Part shown: positions 7,692 to 36,483 of the stretch, piece by piece
Position numbering within the stretch: position 1 is the stretch's first letter
How the letters are laid out: the number at the start of each line of letters is the position of its first letter
Origin: a virus
Taxonomy: Duplodnaviria > Heunggongvirae > Uroviricota > Caudoviricetes
Direction: 5' to 3' (one strand)
IMG/VR virus record: IMGVR_UViG_2721755497_000004
Length of the DNA: 47,379 nucleotides
Notes under the pieces: model-generated
The model's input: only the letters and a program-made list of their open reading frames with translations
The model's database searches: none
Told to the model about the DNA's origin: nothing
Translations under genes and position numbers: made by a program

Positions 7692-8390
7692 TCACTGTGA
7701 AAGTTTATTAATGGAAAGGAAAAAACCGCCGTTTGCCACATTCCCGCGCATTTCACAACCGCGCAGGCACTTGCTGCATTTGTCTTTCCTGATATCCGTG
7801 GTGGGTTTGTCGAACTCGTCAGCCACTGCCGGACCGTTATACCCACATTCCTCTCCACGGTAATCCCACGGACAGGTATTGGCCAGCATGATACGACCGG
7901 GAAACAGCGCCCCGTCCGTCTCTGCCGGTGTCGCCAGGATAAAGGTCGCCTTTTCGCAGGTCAGCGCTGACAACTGCTCCACCACCCAGCGATCTGTCAG
8001 CTCCTGCTCAGGGTCAGCCTCCGGGTTTCCCGCAACAAAATTCACGGCATCGAGAAAACGGGCGTACACCCGGCGGCGAACCACCGTGCCCCCGACCAGA
8101 CTCTGCAAATCCTCCGCCATGCCGGTGACCAGTCCGAACAGATTCGAGACAATCAGCGACGGTCGCGCACTGCTGCCCTTGCCGTTCATCTCAAAGCCGC
8201 TGCCCTCTATCGGGTATGCCTGATACTGACGCCCCTGCCAGGTGACAGGCTCGCCCTTTTCATTGATTTCACCGCAGAAAAAATAGCGTTCGCCTCCCTG
8301 CGCCTTCAGGTCGATTTCCCACAGCACCACGCGGGCGGACTGCGCTGATTTTACTGCCTCGTTCAGACTCTCCTCATGAATATCCTGCAT
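7692..8390 (-). CDS. L: minor tail protein L
   Basis: Translation from the MQDIHEES Met matches lambda gpL along its length; ORF-track start lies further upstream. Confidence 0.9.
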   Translation of the reverse strand: MQDIHEESLNEAVKSAQSARVVLWEIDLKAQGGERYFFCGEINEKGEPVTWQGRQYQAYPIEGSGFEMNGKGSSARPSLIVSNLFGLVTGMAEDLQSLVGGTVVRRRVYARFLDAVNFVAGNPEADPEQELTDRWVVEQLSALTCEKATFILATPAETDGALFPGRIMLANTCPWDYRGEECGYNGPAVADEFDKPTTDIRKDKCSKCLRGCEMRGNVANGGFFLSINKLSQ

Positions 8391-8542
8391 ATGTATCCGC
8401 CCATAAAAAAGGGGCGCAGACGCGCCCCGAACAATACGTTCAGTTTTAAATAAAACCAATAAAGGTAATAACAGAAAATTAAATCAGCATATGCATGGCA
8501 ATTGCTGATGCAGTGACCAATGAAAACTATGTTTTCATTGAT

Positions 8543-8572
8543 ACAGACCGCCTGTAAGGGCAGACGGTCTGT
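8543..8572. terminator. hairpin downstream of the porin gene (putative terminator)
   Basis: ACAGACCGCCTG / CAGACGGTCTGT 11-of-12 bp stem with TAAGGG loop in the 136-bp AT-rich gap between porin stop and L start. Confidence 0.4.
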
Positions 8573-8595
8573 ATTTATTAACTTATCAGCAATAA

Positions 8596-9759
8596 TCAGA
8601 ACTGATAAGTCATCCCAACAGCAACGATATTATCTGTCGCAATACCGGCTTTCTGGGTAAATTCGCTTTCATCAATCAGGTTAATTTTATAATCAACATA
8701 AGTGGACATATTTTTGTTAAAGTAATAAGTCGCACCGACATCAATATATTTAACCAGATCCTGGTCGCCATGGTTCACACCACCAACCATAACATCCTGT
8801 CCGCGGGACTGCAGATAAGCCAGAGATGGACGCAGGCCAAAATCGAACTGATACTGAGCAACCATTTCAAGGTTTTGTGCTTTATCCGCAACCCCGGTAT
8901 CACCAAAAGTGGTCATATTCTGGGTTTCGGAATAAATTGCAGCCAGATACAGATTGTTTGCATCATATTTAAGGCCAGTCCCCCACATCTCAGCATACTT
9001 ACCTTTTGCAACGCTGCCGGAATCAACGGACACTTCTTTTTCCGTCACATCCCCCGTTAAAGGATCTTTGACTTCAATAGTTTTGCTACCATTCAGGCCA
9101 TTAACCTGCTTACCTGTACGATCTGACTTAGTATACGCTGCCACAAAACCAAAACCATCAAACTCATAGCTGGCAGAGAAACCATATCCATCACCATTAG
9201 ACTTCTGGAGGTCATCTCGCTCATTTTTTCCCTGATACTGGGCTGCAAAGTTAAGACCATCCACCAGTCCGAAGAAATCTGTATTGCGGTAAGTCAGCAC
9301 TCCGGAAGTACGAGCAGTCATGAAGTTATCAGTCTGCGTCCAGCCATCGCCACCAAATTCTGGCAGAACGTCTGTATACGAACCGACATCATAAGCGATA
9401 CCATAATTACGCCCGTAATCAATGCTACCTAAATCAGCGAATTTCAAACCGGCAAATGCCAGACGGGTTTTATTGCCTGCCGTCCCTTCAGACTCGGCCT
9501 TATTACCTGAAAACTGATATTCCCAGTGACCAAAACCTGTCAGTTGATCATTGATCTGAGTCTCACCTTTAAAACCAAGACGTGCATAGGTCTTATCGCC
9601 ATCATCACCTTTATCGTCTGAGAAGTAATGGAGAGCAGTTACACGACCATAAAGATCCAGCTTATTACCATCTTTATTATAAACTTCTGCTGCCTGAGCC
9701 CCCGCAGCAAACATCACTGCCACTGCAACAGCAGAAAGTGCCACTGTCATTTTTTTCAT
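8596..9759 (-). CDS. OmpC/NmpC/Lc-family outer membrane porin (phage moron)
   Basis: 387-aa ORF with cleavable signal peptide (…[10 protein letters not shown]), enterobacterial general-porin motifs and C-terminal ...GMTYQF; flanked by AT-rich DNA; inserted between tail genes M and L. Confidence 0.9.
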
Positions 9760-9992
9760 TTATTTAGTCCTTTTTAATCTTTTAACCGAACTGTTCACAA
9801 CAGAAACTGTCATAAACATTATTTAAAATATTTAAAATAGCTGCCCATTCAATATTCAAAATGTAAGAGAATGTAAAAAAAAGATCCAGGCAACACTTTA
9901 TAATAAGAAATGAGACAAATAAATATATAAAATAGCAATTTATTATTTTAATTATTTTCACTACTTTTATTTATTTTATTATTTTATCCACT
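9760..9992 (-). promoter_or_regulatory. AT-rich upstream region of porin moron (probable autonomous promoter region)
   Basis: 233 bp of very AT-rich sequence between M stop and porin start, atypical for the surrounding tail operon. Confidence 0.35.
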
Positions 9993-10322
9993 TCAGCTTA
10001 CTACCTGTTTAAACTCAGCACTAAATTCCACACGCAGCATATTTATCCTGGAGGTCCATTTAGCACACGTCACCTTTATCTGCCTGTACGTATAAGGCGG
10101 CGTCCACAGAAACGCCTTCCAACCCCCGTGCTCTGCCAGAAAATCTTCCAGCCGTCTGGCATCATCACGGGACACAGACAGCGAAACGTTGTAGATTTTC
10201 AGATCCGCATTCAGCCCGGCAGGCGCACGCTGGGAATACCCGTCCCCAAAACGCACTTCCATAACCGACGGCTCAGAGGTCACTTCCATTCCCGGCTTCA
10301 CTTTCCAGCGAAATGTTTTCAA
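9993..10322 (-). CDS. M: minor tail protein M
   Basis: MKTFRWKVKPGM...FGDGYSQRAPAGLNA... near-identical pattern to lambda gpM. Confidence 0.9.
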   Translation of the reverse strand: MKTFRWKVKPGMEVTSEPSVMEVRFGDGYSQRAPAGLNADLKIYNVSLSVSRDDARRLEDFLAEHGGWKAFLWTPPYTYRQIKVTCAKWTSRINMLRVEFSAEFKQVVS

Positions 10323-12901
10323 CGCCCACCTCCGGAGAACATACCGCCATCACGCATCTGTGCCTGGATCTCATCACGGGCTCCCTTACGGGCCATGTCA
10401 TAAACCAGCACCAGTGCCTGCGGACCGATACTGCCATTCGTGGCATCATTCTGAATCACCACATTGTTGTTCTGATTAAAACTGATACCATCTGCCCGCC
10501 GCATCTGAGCCTGACTTCCGGAACCACCCACATAACCGCCATCCGCATACCCCCGCATCAGGCGGTACAGGTTGCCGACACCAATCCGGCTGGTTGCCTC
10601 CTTCGTGAACACAAACTCACCACGGTGAACAATCCCCGCAGGCTCATATTTTCCGCCAGTGCCGGTGAATCCACCGGTCGCAAAATGAAAGTTTGCTGCC
10701 GCAGCCTGAATGGCTGTCCCCGTGGAAGCTGACGCGCCAGCACCACCAATGGCTCCCCCGATGGCGCTGCCGATACTCCCGACAATCCCCACCATGGCCT
10801 GTTTAATCAGGATTTCCGTCATCATGGACAGCACCGAACGGGTGAAACTGCGCCAGTTCTGTTCACTGCCGGTCAGCATTGCCGCCATATTCTGTGCAAT
10901 ACCATCAAAGGTCTGCGTTGCAGCACTTTTAACCTGCGAAAAACTGTCCGTCGCACTTTCAACCCACTCACCCCAGCCAGACTTAAACCCGGCCAGCCAG
11001 TCACTGCGCAGCATATCTTCATCCGCCCATGTCTGCTTCAGTGCCCCGGTGACCTGTGCCAGCGCCTGCGGATTATCGCGGTACACGTCACGAAGACGCT
11101 GCTCTTCAGACTCACGCTGCGCCTGACGATCGGTGAGACCGCGGGCTTTTGCGCTGATGGCCGCCTGCTTCGCGCTCTGCTGCTCTTCAAACCGCGCTGC
11201 CTGCTGTGCCAGCTCATTCAGCCGTTTCTGGTATTCAACCTTGTCGCCCAGGTCAGCCAGCTGGCGTTTGTACTCCAGCGTCTCTTTCTCATGGGCCAGC
11301 AGGGATTTTTCCTGCTCAGATAACTGCCGTTTCGTGGCGGCCTCTTTCAGGACCGCATACTGATTTTCCGCTTTCCATAAATCCCGGCGCTGCTGGCTGA
11401 TTTTCTCATTCGTACCACTGTGTTTTTCCAGCGTCCGGAGCTCGGTATCAAGCGCCAGCAGGGCAGCATGCGCCTGGTCTTCCTGACGCTCACCGGCTGA
11501 CACTTTTACACCTGACGACTTCGGCTTTTTCAGCGTCGCTTCATAATCCTTTTTCGCAGCCGCCATCAGCGTGTTGTAATCTGCCTGCAGGATTTTCCCG
11601 TCTTTCAGTGCCTTCTTCAGTTCCTTCTGGCGGGCGGTATATTTATCCAGCGGCGTCTGCAGGCGTTCATATGCCTTCTGCACCTCTTCGGTGTACTTCA
11701 GCCGTGAGGCCTCTGATTCAGCCCGATCCCGTGCCGCCATTTCGCTGGCTTTTTCCAGGTCTGCCTGCAGTGTCGCCGCTGAAAGACCGAGGCGGGCGTT
11801 TTCGCGGTCGTCCCATGCGCCGCGCAGATTAGAAAGATACGCTGACGTTTTTCCGCGCCGGTTACTGCGACTCTGATACCATTGCCATTTTTTATCCGCC
11901 TCATCGAATGCCTGCTGTGCCTTATTCAGCATTTCTGCAGATGACTCAGGACGCCCGATATCCAGCACTGCATCCCACATGGATTTAAACGCACTGCCGA
12001 CTTTATCCGCCCAGGTCTCCAGCGTTCCCATATTCGCTTTCAGGCGGCGGGTCTGCTCATCAAACCCTTTTGTGGCGGCCTCGTTTGCGGCCTGCAATGC
12101 CCCGGCCTCATCACCGGAACGCTGCAGTTGCGCAACATACGCAATCTGCTCTGCCGTCACGTTACGGAACTGGCGCGCCATCGCCATCAGCCCCGACGTC
12201 GGGTCGGTGGTCAGTTTTCCGAAAGCCTCTGCAATCTTGTCCACTTCCACACCGGATGCAGAAGCAAAACGCGCCACACTCTGATTAATGGCATCAAACT
12301 GTTCACCACCACGCACACCGGCATTCACCAGTGCTGCCAGTGACTCACTCGCCTGATTAAACGTCAGCCCTGCTGCCTGTCCTGCTCTGGAGAGAGTCAG
12401 CATGCGATCTGCGGTCAGCCCGGACTGATTACCGGAAAGAACCAGGGTTTTATTAAACGCTGAAAGCGTGGAGTCCCCCTGGTACCAGGCATACGCCAGC
12501 GCCCCGGTTGCTGCAACGAGTGATGTGATCCCGACAGCAGGCAGCGTGACGGCACCAGCAAGGCTCCGGAACATGGGGATCAGCCCACCGAAGGAGTCCT
12601 TCACCTGTCCGCCCTGCTGCAGCAGGATCAACCACGGACTCTGACCACCGGCAAGCTGCGTGGCGATATCCGTGAACTGTGCGGGCAGGGTACGCATGGC
12701 TGCTTTATACTGCCCGACGGAAATCCCGGCTTTTTGTGCGGCCAGCGCCTGACGGTTCAGACTCTGCTCAACGGCACCGGCGGTTTTTCTGGCGTCGGTA
12801 TCCAGTCCTGAAAAATGACGCCTTACCCGGCTCATCTGCTCATCGAAACGGGCCGCATCCAGACTCAGGTCAATAACAAGATCACCAACCGGCTGGGACA
12901 T
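10319..12901 (-). CDS. H: tail tape measure protein H
   Basis: 860-aa ORF, MSQPVGDLVIDLSLDAARFDEQM... and C-terminal ...MRDGGMFSGGGR as in lambda gpH. Confidence 0.95.
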   Translation of the reverse strand: MSQPVGDLVIDLSLDAARFDEQMSRVRRHFSGLDTDARKTAGAVEQSLNRQALAAQKAGISVGQYKAAMRTLPAQFTDIATQLAGGQSPWLILLQQGGQVKDSFGGLIPMFRSLAGAVTLPAVGITSLVAATGALAYAWYQGDSTLSAFNKTLVLSGNQSGLTADRMLTLSRAGQAAGLTFNQASESLAALVNAGVRGGEQFDAINQSVARFASASGVEVDKIAEAFGKLTTDPTSGLMAMARQFRNVTAEQIAYVAQLQRSGDEAGALQAANEAATKGFDEQTRRLKANMGTLETWADKVGSAFKSMWDAVLDIGRPESSAEMLNKAQQAFDEADKKWQWYQSRSNRRGKTSAYLSNLRGAWDDRENARLGLSAATLQADLEKASEMAARDRAESEASRLKYTEEVQKAYERLQTPLDKYTARQKELKKALKDGKILQADYNTLMAAAKKDYEATLKKPKSSGVKVSAGERQEDQAHAALLALDTELRTLEKHSGTNEKISQQRRDLWKAENQYAVLKEAATKRQLSEQEKSLLAHEKETLEYKRQLADLGDKVEYQKRLNELAQQAARFEEQQSAKQAAISAKARGLTDRQAQRESEEQRLRDVYRDNPQALAQVTGALKQTWADEDMLRSDWLAGFKSGWGEWVESATDSFSQVKSAATQTFDGIAQNMAAMLTGSEQNWRSFTRSVLSMMTEILIKQAMVGIVGSIGSAIGGAIGGAGASASTGTAIQAAAANFHFATGGFTGTGGKYEPAGIVHRGEFVFTKEATSRIGVGNLYRLMRGYADGGYVGGSGSQAQMRRADGISFNQNNNVVIQNDATNGSIGPQALVLVYDMARKGARDEIQAQMRDGGMFSGGGR

Positions 12902-24403: not shown

Positions 24404-24946
24404 ATGAACAGATACTCTAAACTTCAAATTCAATTACATTGGCTGACTCTCGTATTAATAGCTATAGCCTGTGCTGCAATGGAACTTCGAGGTTTGTTTC
24501 CTAAAGGGTCTTCCTCCTATTTGCTTATGAGAGAAACACATTACAATGCTGGTATATTTATTCTTCTACTGATGATAATAAGAGTAATTATCAATAATAA
24601 ATATATAACACCAGCTATTACGCCGCCCCCACCTGCATGGCAAATGATATCAGCCAAATTCATGCAAACCCTGTTATACATATCTTTTTTGGTGTTACCA
24701 GTATCAGGACTTGCAATCATGGTTTTTGGAGGTAAAGCATGGAGCCTTCTGGGGATTGATATTCCCACTTTCGCTAACACCGACGGAGAAGTAAAATCCG
24801 TAGCCAAAACTATTCATGAATCACTTGCAAATATTGGTTATTTATTAATCACACTCCATGCTGGCGCTGCATTAATTCATCATTATATTCAGAAGGACAA
24901 TACACTTGTCAGAATGCTCCCTGAGCACCAGCATGATAAAAAGTGA
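24404..24946 (+). CDS. cytochrome b561 family protein (CybB-like, moron)
   Basis: 180-aa ORF with conserved b561 motifs (…YSKLQIQLHWL…, …HESLANIGYLLITLHAGAALIHHYIQKDNTLVRMLP), four predicted TM helices, AT-rich, RBS AAGGGA. Confidence 0.8.
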   Translation: MNRYSKLQIQLHWLTLVLIAIACAAMELRGLFPKGSSSYLLMRETHYNAGIFILLLMIIRVIINNKYITPAITPPPPAWQMISAKFMQTLLYISFLVLPVSGLAIMVFGGKAWSLLGIDIPTFANTDGEVKSVAKTIHESLANIGYLLITLHAGAALIHHYIQKDNTLVRMLPEHQHDKK

Positions 24947-29812: not shown

Positions 29813-29847
29813 TGCAGCCCGTTACCATTCGTAGCGGGCTTTTTTTG
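29813..29847 (+). terminator. plus-strand hairpin plus T7 run
   Basis: AGCCCG...CGGGCT stem followed by TTTTTTT. Confidence 0.45.
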
Positions 29848-29850
29848 TCC

Positions 29851-29876
29851 ATAAAAAAGCCCCTCCGGAGAGGGGC
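29851..29876 (-). terminator. minus-strand intrinsic terminator (GCCCCTC-CGGA-GAGGGGC plus U6)
   Basis: Perfect 7-bp GC stem preceded on the plus strand by AAAAAA; lies downstream (minus sense) of repeat element A. Confidence 0.55.
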
Positions 29877-29907
29877 ATACTAGCTATATATCCATTTATC
29901 ATTGGCT

Positions 29908-30037
29908 GCGTGGTGCCGGGTGCCTCCCGGTGAGCTCAGCCTGGTGTCACTGAGCCCGCACATTCTCGATCCAAGTTATCGTCGGAGATAATACCTGATA
30001 CACCAGACGCCCCTCCGCACAGGGGGATTCACCACGC
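29908..30037 (-). repeat. structured repeat element A (closing helix GCGTGGTG/CACCACGC)
   Basis: 5' arm plus CCGGG-TGCCT-CCCGG hairpin ... variable core ... CCCCT-CCGCAC-AGGGG hairpin plus GATT plus 3' arm; strand assigned from the flanking terminators. Confidence 0.7.
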
Positions 30038-30265
30038 GCAGAGAAGGATACTGAACACTATTTTCTCCAGGCAATATGCAATAACATGAAGTGTGAGATG
30101 ACTTACAATTATAAAAAACAGCCTACAGAATACTCCTAAATAAAGCCATATCAAAATGAGTAACACAAAAAGGAACCAGGCAAAAATTTACGAGCAGGTA
30201 TTATCCAGCAACAGTTCAGACGCCATAACTTATTGCCGATAGCTACCATCAATAATTTCTTTCAT

Positions 30266-30289
30266 AAAAAAGCCCCTCTGAAGAGGGGC
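30266..30289 (-). terminator. minus-strand intrinsic terminator (GCCCCTC-TGAA-GAGGGGC plus U6)
   Basis: Near-identical copy of the element A terminator, downstream (minus sense) of element B. Confidence 0.55.
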
Positions 30290-30316
30290 TGACATACGCA
30301 TTTGCTTTCATCATCA

Positions 30317-30439
30317 ATATGGCGCCGGGTGCCTCCCGGTGCTCCATAACTGATTAATATGGAACGCGGTTTCATTCAGTTGCATTCATGAATAACACTC
30401 TAATCAGTCCGCCCCGCCGCTTAGGGGGATTCGCCATAT
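30317..30439 (-). repeat. structured repeat element B (closing helix ATATGGCG/CGCCATAT, compensatory change)
   Basis: Same architecture as A; terminal helix sequence differs from A but remains perfectly complementary. Confidence 0.7.
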
Positions 30440-30574
30440 AAATTGAAAGTACTGAACACATCTGTCACAAACAATATGCAATTGTATGAATTGTGAGATT
30501 ATTATCAATAACACAAAATTACAGCTCTAGTACATAAACAGCAGATTAAACAAGAACAACAAAAGTATTGAATT

Positions 30575-30700
30575 GCACGGTGCCGGGTGCCTCCCGGTGA
30601 ATTCTGCAATGACCAGACAGAATCCGCAACTTGCTACTAACGCTAATGCGACCAAGCCTAACAGTCATTATGCCCCTCCGCACAGGGGGATTCACCATGC
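30575..30700 (-). repeat. structured repeat element C (closing helix GCACGGTG/CACCATGC, one mismatch)
   Basis: Same conserved hairpins GGTGCCGGGTGCCTCCCGGTGA and CCCCTCCGCACAGGGGGATTCACCA; different variable core. Confidence 0.7.
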
Positions 30701-30829
30701 GCTAAAAAAATACAAAACGTCACGTCACTCTGACAATACGAAGCACCATAAAATGTGAGTTATTTATCAATTCTTAATTCTGGTTACAGGAATATTCCGA
30801 ATCAAATCTTTAAAAAAAGAAATTCAAAT

Positions 30830-30932
30830 GCATGGTGCCGGGTGCCTCCCGGTGAACAGACCGTCCGTGATACCAGTCGGCAACACAGGAAATTAATGGT
30901 ATCACCCCACCGCACAGGGGGATTCACCATGC
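30830..30932 (-). repeat. structured repeat element D (closing helix GCATGGTG/CACCATGC)
   Basis: Same conserved hairpins; shorter variable core containing its own 9-bp hairpin GTGATACCA/TGGTATCAC. Confidence 0.7.
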
Positions 30933-31121
30933 AGGCGTTTTCTTAGCAAACTAACTGCGCGCCCGGCAACTCCCAACCACATAAAACGTGGAGTTTGTAG
31001 CATTTATGCACATAACTCACAGGGGTTATCTTAAAAAAAGCTGACCATGCTTCCCCGGCAACGCAATAACTTTATTCCCTGAAGTGGCATCCCCCGTATT
31101 GTCGGCAGGCTCAAAAAGGAG

Positions 31122-31587: not shown

Positions 31588-31665
31588 TGGACCGTCACCG
31601 GGGACTCGAACCCCGCATTTTCAACATAAAAAGGTTGATGCTCTTTCCTGATGAGCTAGTGACGG
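31588..31665 (-). tRNA. tRNA-like gene with 8-nt anticodon loop (possible unusual tRNA or pseudogene)
   Basis: 7-bp acceptor stem CCGTCAC/GTGACGG, encoded CCA, D arm GCTC/GAGC, T arm CGGGG-TTCGAGT-CCCCG, but anticodon arm TCAAC-CTTTTTAT-GTTGA has an 8-nt loop. Confidence 0.45.
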
Positions 31666-31667
31666 CA

Positions 31668-31742
31668 TGGTTGCCTTGCTGGATTTGAACCAGCGACCTG
31701 GCGATTATGAGTCTCTCGCTCTCACCACTGAGCTAAAGGGCC
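31668..31742 (-). tRNA. tRNA with CAU anticodon (Ile2/Met-like), acceptor and anticodon stems imperfect
   Basis: GGCCCTTTAGCTCAGTGG...CTCATAA...GCTGGTTCAAATCCAGC...CCA; D and T arms canonical; 3 terminal acceptor pairs and 2 anticodon-stem pairs mismatched; one nt short. Confidence 0.55.
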
Positions 31743-31782
31743 GGGAACAGAATAATAATGGTGCGTAATTAATTCTGCAATC

Positions 31783-36116: not shown

Positions 36117-36272
36117 TTACTCCTCAGGTTCGTAAGCTGTGAAGACAGCGACCTCCGTCTGGCCGGTTCGGATTCGTACCTCGCAGAGGTCTTTCCTCGT
36201 TACCAGTGCCGTCACTATGACGGTTAAACAGATGACGATCAGGGCGATTAACATCGCCTTTTGCTGCTTCAT
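36117..36272 (-). CDS. hokD: Hok-family type I toxin
   Basis: 51-aa MKQQKAMLIALIVICLTVIVTALVTRKDLCEVRIRTGQTEVAVFTAYEPEE, canonical Hok; nested in the longer mok-like frame starting at 36329. Confidence 0.85.
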   Translation of the reverse strand: MKQQKAMLIALIVICLTVIVTALVTRKDLCEVRIRTGQTEVAVFTAYEPEE

Positions 36273-36329
36273 AGCCTGCTTCTCCTTGCCTTTCGGCACG
36301 TAAGAGGCTAACCTAGATTTGCCGTTCAT
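36117..36329 (-). CDS. mok: Mok-like overlapping reading frame
   Basis: 70-aa frame (MNGKSRLASYVPKGKEKQA…) extending upstream of and in frame with hok. Confidence 0.45.
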   Translation of the reverse strand: MNGKSRLASYVPKGKEKQAMKQQKAMLIALIVICLTVIVTALVTRKDLCEVRIRTGQTEVAVFTAYEPEE

Positions 36330-36483
36330 AGATTGAGCCTCAGATTAATGTTAAGCGTCTTGCAGGACGCGTAATGTTAACTGGGGCTTTTCTCTATCTG
36401 CCTTTGGTGTTCATGCCTGAGACAGATAGCCTCAAGCACCCGCAGCCATTCTACTTAACTCCCGTTACCTCGCCAATATAAAA

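Follow-up and report, generated by a model that had tools for sequence, protein, structure and literature searches.

A porin gene with a structured, IpeX-like 3′ untranslated region forms a probable lysogenic-conversion cassette between tail genes M and L of an Escherichia coli prophage

We analysed a stretch of 47,379 nucleotides (IMG/VR virus record IMGVR_UViG_2721755497_000004, Caudoviricetes; hereafter the window), which is an E. coli lambdoid prophage that is 100% identical to sequences of the mouse isolates M18, M3 and M1 and adjoins potB. Between its tail genes M and L lies a block of extra DNA carrying a gene for a general porin. The explanation we consider reasonably probable is that this block is a mobile lysogenic-conversion or "porin-swap" cassette, composed of an ompC-like promoter region, the porin gene, a structured 3′ untranslated region (3′UTR) of the IpeX family, about 170-200 nt long, and a strong terminator followed by a ribosome-binding site for L.

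The block occupies positions 8391-9992 on the minus strand (1602 bp, low GC) and fills exactly the interval from the stop codon of M to the ATG of L. The gene order on this strand is H (10319-12901), M (9993-10322), a 233-bp spacer, an open reading frame (ORF) of 387 amino acids (8596-9759), a second spacer, and L, K, I and J. GC contents amount to 21% in the upstream spacer, 44% in the porin gene and 38.5% in the 3′ spacer, compared to 51.5-57% in M, L, H and J. The insert is bordered by the following features:

9993-10322, minus strand: tail gene M, 109 amino acids (Pfam Phage_min_tail, E = 1e-37)
9993-9995, minus strand: TGA stop codon of M, the left border of the insert, which overlaps the ATG of L in the empty site
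8391-8404, minus strand: spacer ATGGGCGGATACAT, which supplies L with a replacement ribosome-binding site and forms the right border, kept at the 3′ end of every cassette
7692-8390, minus strand: tail gene L, 232 amino acids, ATG at 8390 (TIGR01600, E = 4e-104; Phage_tail_L; coordinates of the RefSeq coding sequence)

Both flanking ORFs, M and L, remain intact, and L has gained a new ribosome-binding site. An earlier note on this DNA, made from its letters alone, had described AT-rich flanks of 233 bp upstream and 136 bp downstream of the porin gene, the latter implying that L starts at TTG 8459. The upstream flank is as described, with a GC content of 21%; the start of L is not, as the RefSeq annotation and the alignment with the empty site both place it at ATG 8390. 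The downstream spacer therefore measures 205 bp (8391-8595), 69 bp more than had been assumed, and the insert extends from 8391 to 9992.

Occupied and empty sites exist in closely related prophages. A query in which M was joined directly to L matched, in one piece and with 97.8% identity, a second prophage of strains M3 and M1 (L003). There the junction reads ...AACTGATGCAG..., the stop codon of M overlaps the start codon of L (TGATG), and L is coupled to this stop codon, unlike the spacer-fed L of the window. The empty-site prophage is 98.3% identical to the window over stf-J-I-K-L, starting at the side tail fibre genes, up to the ATG of L and 91.4% identical in M and H, and its head genes are unrelated. 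This shift of identity falls exactly at the M/L junction (8390 / 9993 compared with L003), which thus doubles as a recombination breakpoint separating the tail-tip from the tail-shaft module.

A contiguous M-L junction was found in 1693 of 5426 complete E. coli genomes and a porin gene between M and L in 80, corresponding to a prevalence of about 1.5%. Copies at least 97% identical to the window were present in 17 of these 80 carriers, many of them mouse gut isolates, together with human and canine isolates. Most remaining carriers are about 88% identical over porin and L, and their prophages are HK97-like and have another M; alleles of greater divergence are carried by other strains, among them Shiga-toxin-producing E. 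coli (STEC) serotypes. Since M and L are contiguous in a 98.3%-identical relative and in 1693 genomes, the block is supported as a moron and not as a conserved gene of the structural module. The proposal in the earlier note of a porin moron inserted between M and L is thus borne out by the empty site, the deviant GC content, the promoter-like region and the terminator. The check it had proposed, whether M and L are adjacent in related prophages, found them so, and the counter-case it had named, a porin carried at this position by all relatives, is contradicted by 1693 contiguous against 80 filled junctions. As in other morons, extra DNA separates genes that are adjacent in relatives, and its base composition is unlike that of its neighbours. 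The block has a clear and invariant terminator of its own; for an own promoter, there are sequence conservation and collinearity with ompC, together with weak hexamers and a promoter scan at chance level. A cassette bound to one particular L-K-I-J module was considered and ruled out, as a 98.3%-identical module exists without it. A megablast search of the cassette against deposited phage genomes matched only the 3′ part of P7 nmpC and returned no sequenced free phage with the cassette.

The second line of evidence comes from the RNA downstream of the porin stop codon, for which the following elements were identified:

8541-8574, minus strand: 3′UTR hairpin H1, 14 bp (4 compensatory pairs; 98.8% of cells paired)
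8518-8540, minus strand: 3′UTR hairpin H2, 10 bp (4 compensatory pairs; 100% of cells paired)
8483-8509, minus strand: 3′UTR hairpin H3, 7-bp stem with a loop length that varies between alleles (1 compensatory pair; 98.8% of cells paired)
8456-8482, minus strand: single-stranded motif UUAAUUUUCUGUUAUUACCUUUAUUGG, a predicted antisense seed against host porin mRNAs (core TTATTACCTT[T/C]AT invariant in 12 alleles)
8405-8428, minus strand: Rho-independent terminator GGGGCGCG-UCUG-CGCCCC followed by U6 (terminator scan; invariant in all alleles)

The 3′UTR of the window folds with -74.8 kcal/mol (z = -8.1). Across 12 distinct alleles the three hairpins and the terminator, which on the DNA reads GGGGCGCGTCTGCGCCCC and then T6 (8428-8405), are paired in 99.3% of cells, and nine pairs show compensatory changes (25 cells), a number equalled by none of 500 shuffles. 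Controls with slid pairing partners gave 37-46% pairing. From the many G-U pairs, the structure can be assigned to the porin-sense RNA. The 3′UTR is 72-98% identical from one allele type to another, compared to 44-64% at fourfold-degenerate sites of the coding sequence. A permissive Rfam scan of 8200-10200 yielded matches at chance level, and no family covers the 3′UTR. Where the earlier note had a single downstream hairpin, there are three and a canonical terminator; it had overlooked the structured 3′UTR, while its core, the porin moron, holds. The 3′UTR is probably half of the function of the cassette.

The 3′UTR of the window is related to a known regulatory RNA. IpeX is a 167-nt RNA that is part of a porin transcript and controls OmpC (PMC12197685), and it is listed as a regulator of both OmpC and OmpF (PMC7177473). 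The location of ipeX is the nmpC 3′UTR of the cryptic prophage DLP12. The corresponding region of the window (8405-8595) runs from the TGA stop codon of the porin to the terminator hairpin and U6, as a position of the IpeX type requires, and has its layout in common with DLP12: three hairpins, then a U-rich single-stranded stretch with TTCTGTTAT and TTACC(C)TTTATT, and finally a terminator of the form GGGGCG...CGCCCC. A covariance model of the M/L 3′UTR matched the DLP12 element (L004 4364-4537) over its full length with 39.3 bits, and the E-values obtained with it, which are rough, were 7e-7 for DLP12, 7e-9 for the P7 nmpC 3′UTR, 1e-6 to 3e-6 for intact nmpC loci and 1e-18 for the 3′UTR of a 73%-identical porin gene in a non-phage island. 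No significant match was found in chromosomal ompC, ompF, Gifsy-2 or the empty-site prophage. The sole weak match in the ompC locus was micF (L005 1755-1878, plus strand; 12.1 bits, E = 0.94, not significant); the 5′ end of MicF resembles the seed in that it contains UUUAUUUAUUACCGUCAUU and shares UUAUUACC. By nhmmer, the M/L 3′UTR was linked to the P7 nmpC 3′UTR with E = 1.2e-5. Homology to DLP12 ipeX by sequence alone is not claimed, as the nhmmer match was marginal, and the covariance model was used instead.

The single-stranded motif is complementary to the translation starts of host porin mRNAs. Interaction energies were compared with a background of 7070 windows of 80 nt from E. coli and prophage DNA with the cassette masked, and with mononucleotide shuffles:

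Window seed with ompC (K-12) -31..-4, including the Shine-Dalgarno sequence: -22.3 kcal/mol, 0/7070 background windows as good
Window seed with ompF: -15.6 kcal/mol, 174/7070 as good
Window seed with the translation start of the cassette itself: -9.7 kcal/mol, 3033/7070 as good, no signal
Type B seed (UUUUCAUUUUAUUACCUUCAU) with ompC -14..+11: -20.6 kcal/mol, 6/7070 as good
Type B seed with ompF -17..+9: -18.9 kcal/mol, 6/7070 as good
P7 seed with ompF: -23.4 kcal/mol, 0/7070 as good

The predicted pairing joins the seed segments UUCUGUUAU and UUAUUACCUU to their counterparts AUAACAGAG and AAUAAAGG in the ompC leader. With an earlier, larger background, the positive control MicF-ompF obtained a rank of 0.0003 and MicF-ompC one of 0.18, which is not significant. 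A stretch of ipeX itself pairs with ompC -32..-6 with -26.4 kcal/mol (rank 0.0003), including a near-perfect run of 15 bp (AAACCUUCUGUUAUA / UAUAACAGAGGGUU) between ipeX (L004 4364-4537, minus strand) and the Shine-Dalgarno region of ompC (L005 1451-1482). This complementarity exceeds what reviews imply; the original IpeX paper reportedly described none. Conservation of the target region reaches at least 99% for ompC in 5368 of 5371 E. coli genomes and for ompF in 5082 of 5421. Such conserved targets and the energies above suggest that the RNA of the cassette may repress OmpC and OmpF.

Alternatively, the 3′UTR might act in cis only, by stabilising or terminating the porin mRNA or by tuning translation of L in the late transcript, with the antisense match as a by-product of shared AU-rich composition or of common ancestry. 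In favour of this view, a distance of 14 nt separates the terminator from the ATG of L, every cassette stops at the ribosome-binding site of this gene, IpeX is reported not to depend on complementarity alone, and the energies of -19 to -22 kcal/mol are weaker than that of MicF-ompF (-27). Composition-matched shuffles and about 7000 genomic windows, however, rarely or never reach the observed energies, and the invariant core is precisely the antisense part. Moreover, the diverged M/L types A and B and P7 each keep a long complementarity to the translation start of a host porin, and the element accompanies the porin where L is absent or a pseudogene. We therefore regard an exclusive role in cis as unlikely, although it is the strongest of the competitors of the porin-swap cassette.

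The protein encoded by the cassette is a full-length general porin. Its coding region comprises:

8596-9759, minus strand: porin coding sequence, 387 amino acids (Pfam Porin_1, NCBIfam, AF2 model)
9691-9759, minus strand: signal peptide, amino acids 1-23 of the porin coding sequence
8998-9120, minus strand: hypervariable surface loop L5, amino acids 214-254, about 28 amino acids longer than in OmpC by comparison with the OmpC structure

The porin matched Pfam Porin_1 (PF00267) with E = 3.8e-144 over profile positions 1-337 and NCBIfam NF007841 ("porin OmpC" subfamily) with 508 bits at a cut-off of 484, this being a subfamily model and not an equivalog. Its hallmarks are the signal peptide, the L3 motif PEFGGD, the arginine cluster and the C-terminal YQF, so that the OmpC/NmpC/Lc-type porin with signal peptide named in the earlier note is confirmed by Pfam, NCBIfam and sequence hallmarks alike. 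The best solved relatives are OmpC, PhoE and OmpK36, with OmpC 3upg as the top PDB match (442 bits), and the AF2 model is a 16-strand barrel of moderate confidence (pLDDT 71.7). Identities are 68% to NmpC, 67% to P7 NmpC, 58% to OmpC of K-12 and 55-57% to OmpF. The comparison with Lc and NmpC that had been proposed thus places the porin in the same clade, as a separate lineage rather than a close relative. RefSeq names it "porin OmpC" and PHROGs lists its family, phrog_410, as "unknown function"; it is not an orthologue of chromosomal ompC, given 58% identity as against 68% to NmpC, its location in a tail operon and a host that keeps its own ompC.

Inactivating lesions, the other objection foreseen in the earlier note, were not found: all 36 alleles examined are intact ORFs of 364-387 amino acids. 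Among 14 distinct proteins, 22% of positions vary in the strands and 48% in the loops. In L5, where the AF2 model shows an extra β-hairpin (strands 224-231 and 238-245), 80% of positions vary across the 14 alleles and the length differs by up to about 28 amino acids; L3 and the periplasmic turns hardly vary, and the residues of the pore are conserved. Such a pattern of variation is the signature of a working pore with, apparently, diversifying pressure on its exposed face.

The region upstream of the porin gene contains the following elements:

9760-9992, minus strand: upstream regulatory region, 233 bp, 21% GC (alignable over 17 distinct variants; collinear with the K-12 ompC promoter region)
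9858-9877, minus strand: OmpR-box-like direct repeat TTTACATTCT CTTACATTTT, two TTACAT motifs 10 bp apart (kept in all variants)
9818-9852, minus strand: candidate core promoter, TTGAAT (9852-9847), a 16-nt spacer and TATTTT (9830-9825) (conserved blocks ATTGAAY and AAATATTTT)
9823-9818, minus strand: alternative candidate -10 hexamer AATAAT (promoter scan: TGGGCA-18-AATAAT)
9768-9772, minus strand: Shine-Dalgarno sequence AAGGA of the porin gene (conserved block)

The 17 distinct upstream sequences align end to end and share the blocks TGTCTT..AAAGTG, TTTACATTYTSWWRCR, ATTGAAY, AAATATTTT, GTTYATGACA, CATGAAYAGTTC and the Shine-Dalgarno AAGGA. In other alleles the OmpR-type box reads TTGCATTTACATTTTG or TTTACATTTTGAAACA, each with 16 nt identical to the K-12 ompC upstream sequence ...TTGCATTTACATTTTGAAACATCTA, which we take to be the OmpR C1 site. 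The pattern of this box has one match in the window, where 0.06 are expected by chance. A promoter under the control of OmpR is suggested by this conservation. An assignment of the start site from the hexamers was dropped as ambiguous; weak hexamers are as expected for an activator-dependent promoter.

The porin of the cassette belongs to a lineage that is faithful to its position. Identity within the M/L porin clade is at least 79% and to the next closest porins at most 73%. In IMG/VR, all 31 loci whose porin reaches at least 84% identity have the order M-porin-L (one contig ends before M); M is of the lambda type in 2 and of the HK97 type in 28 of these loci, and the two types of M are 44-49% identical to each other. 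The 49 IMG/VR loci at 68% identity are all of the NmpC type, with the porin gene located on the other strand between Q and the holin gene. Alleles of 80-87% identity also reside at M/L, in E. coli and Citrobacter farmeri, and the lineage was invariably located there in the intact prophages sampled. 3′UTR types and coding sequence types recombine, as L050 and L053 have the same coding sequence with different 3′UTRs. In another locus (L010 4662-5000), two sequences precede the cassette, the 3′ end of an HK97-type M gene and a degenerate copy, interrupted by an in-frame stop, of approximately the first 80 nt of L; this arrangement looks like a recombination scar left when porin and L were imported from an HK97-like into a lambda-like tail module.

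The cassette also persists where the phage does not. An 80%-identical allele (P0019, which stands for a cluster of 54 sequences) is located in a decayed prophage (L012 4031-6802; the same region in L011), in which an intact porin gene, complete with promoter region and 3′UTR, lies amid an L pseudogene and pieces of the tape-measure and M genes; a non-phage island (L119) likewise retains the porin gene intact with both. That the cassette is intact inside a decayed prophage speaks for selection acting on it and gives some indirect support to its putative expression from the repressed prophage. In L011, an IS66 element is inserted within the 3′UTR, between model positions about 168 and 159.

Taken together, we propose that the cassette would be transcribed on its own in the lysogen and that the phage porin would insert into the outer membrane. 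The tail of the porin mRNA, or an RNA processed from it, might pair with the translation starts of ompC and ompF and thereby lower the host porins. The surface would thus be re-tiled with a variant porin, with possible consequences for permeability and for the availability of receptors for other phages and colicins. In the lytic cycle, read-through of the terminator by Q-modified polymerase would still allow L, K, I and J to be made.

Several observations weigh against this proposal. The generic scan found 4 promoter-like sites in the upstream region where 4.6 are expected from shuffles, the -35 and -10 hexamers are weak, and DNA with a GC content of 21% is of the type silenced by H-NS. The nhmmer match of the M/L 3′UTR to DLP12 ipeX is marginal (E = 0.03-0.3) and covers the terminator part only, and the E-values of the covariance model are, as stated, rough. 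The complementarity of the window allele to ompF is modest, 2.5% of the background being as good, and according to the literature the action of IpeX does not rest on complementarity alone. Finally, the C-terminal 300 amino acids of J are 86% identical to J of the long-tailed phages Stx1a/BP-4795; the cassette might conceivably remove the receptor of its own phage, and no specific exclusion benefit can be named.

A different view is that the porin is an accessory of the lytic cycle, made only from the late tail transcript and acting late in infection rather than in the lysogen, for example by decoying or blocking re-adsorption of progeny to debris or vesicles or by changing the envelope before lysis. 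The gene lies inside the tail operon on the same strand, so late transcripts must include it, and the promoter scan stays at chance level. Yet the cassette brings a terminator of its own and an ompC-like promoter region in which an OmpR-type box is conserved, and it has stayed intact in the decayed prophage, where L is a pseudogene and the other tail genes are fragments, as well as in the non-phage island; furthermore, the sister type NmpC is expressed from a repressed prophage in LF82. This makes an exclusively lytic role improbable. Least likely of all is a functionless passenger held off by H-NS whose features are leftovers of a chromosomal porin locus: the extremely AT-rich upstream region and the rarity of the cassette would fit, but fourfold-degenerate sites are near saturation (44-64%) while none of the 36 ORFs is disrupted and the barrel is conserved, and the 3′UTR shows compensatory changes and a conservation far above that of synonymous sites. 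The porin-swap cassette is preferred over the three alternatives, which are less consistent with its integrity in decayed prophages, the compensatory changes in the 3′UTR and the invariance of the antisense core.

Rather than a new kind of system, the cassette represents a second lineage of a design already known from phage Lc/NmpC-IpeX. Lc of phage PA-2 and NmpC of DLP12 are likewise phage-borne general porins of the same clade (68%) with a 3′UTR of ipeX layout. They differ in that they lie between Q and holin on the opposite strand (49/49), whereas the type described here lies between M and L on the operon strand (31/31); their hairpin sequences cannot be aligned with ours by nhmmer, and the window porin has the long hypervariable L5. 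The nmpC of phage-plasmid P7 combines a porin with a homologous 3′UTR whose seed is an almost perfect antisense of the ompF translation start; it differs by 67% protein identity and by its place in a P1-like genome between ssb and odaA, without a tail operon. Chromosomal ompC has the same fold, pore residues, collinear promoter region and OmpR-type box, and differs by 58% identity and by the prophage location of our gene. MicF and MicC are separate antisense genes, whereas in the cassette the antisense stretch is fused to the 3′ end of the mRNA of the competing porin. Phage porins (Lc, NmpC) and IpeX are thus known, and the position also has precedents. New are the porin lineage tied to M/L, the upstream region collinear with ompC, the covarying 3′UTR bearing an antisense stretch and the variation focused on L5; a literature search returned no description of a porin at the M/L junction or of a 3′UTR of the M/L type.

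As for these precedents, Gifsy-2 carries the Lom-like STM1043 and sodC (STM1044) between its gpM and gpL homologues, that is, outer-membrane and periplasmic conversion cargo in the same slot; it differs by an unrelated cargo with sodC on the opposite strand and by having neither a porin nor an IpeX-like RNA. HK97 gene 15, for which the term moron was coined, sits inside the tail operon and resembles the cassette as a compositionally deviant independent unit that alters the envelope of the lysogen (PMC3594210); it differs in its location at the junction of assembly-chaperone and tape-measure genes, in encoding a small inner-membrane protein and in lacking an RNA component. In view of Gifsy-2 and HK97 gene 15 (PMC3594210), the statement in the earlier note that morons usually sit at operon ends is weak. 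A prophage of Actinobacillus seminis (L030 1675-4000) has 2.3 kb at M/L with two ORFs (179 and 274 amino acids; Rha/antirepressor-like), and the slot is therefore used outside the Enterobacteriaceae as well. From these arrangements, the M/L junction is best seen as a recurrent cargo slot of lambdoid tails.

Further cargo was observed at other tail gene junctions. Some porin-carrying prophages have a second slot between L and K (L055 6057-8191, also L051, L052, L056, L059 and L060; L027), where about 2.1 kb encode a ClpP-like protein (178 amino acids), two small Arc/ribbon-helix-helix-like proteins and an antirepressor-like protein of 304 amino acids, labels that come from reading the translations and not from a family search. 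An Edwardsiella prophage has about 0.7 kb at the L/K position. In the porin-carrying HK97-like prophages L006, L007 and L009 (1742-2155), an ORF of 137 amino acids with no Pfam match lies between the T and tape-measure genes, in the slot of the HK97 gene 15 moron.

The window contains further elements outside the tail operon, and one was found in its empty-site relative:

29847-30962, minus strand: four tandem copies of the small RNA STnc100 (Rfam RF02076, 77-133 bits) in the region of the early/late boundary of the prophage
31588-31743, minus strand: two adjacent tRNA genes, one tRNA-Met (CAT), the other with a four-base anticodon "tttt" (ARAGORN)
36267-36441, minus strand: sok antitoxin RNA (RF01794, 110 bits), from which a hok/sok module within the prophage is to be expected
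about 24404-24946, plus strand (L001 36105-36647): a cytochrome b561 (yodB-like) gene near the lysis cassette on the strand opposite to the late genes, with 66.5% DNA identity to chromosomal yodB; a moron candidate
9677-9817 of the empty-site relative L003: a Hok/Gef gene between J and the tail fibre gene, a position at which the window has none

A more general reading is conceivable, and we put it forward tentatively: the enterobacterial phage porins at M/L, of the NmpC/Lc type and of P7 may all carry one modular family of riboregulators, with seeds antisense to the ompC or ompF start that recombine independently of the porin alleles, so that the selected unit would be a "receptor-swap" cassette, which would produce a porin with variant loops while silencing those already present. 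If this were true, the mechanism of IpeX would be settled as ordinary base pairing at the ribosome-binding site. The natural seed variants make this mechanism, long unclear, directly testable. Many antibiotics, colicins and phages enter the cell mainly through OmpC and OmpF. If the proposed porin-swap cassette operates as outlined here, a single horizontal transfer would alter phage host range, colicin sensitivity, drug permeability and surface antigenicity of E. coli.

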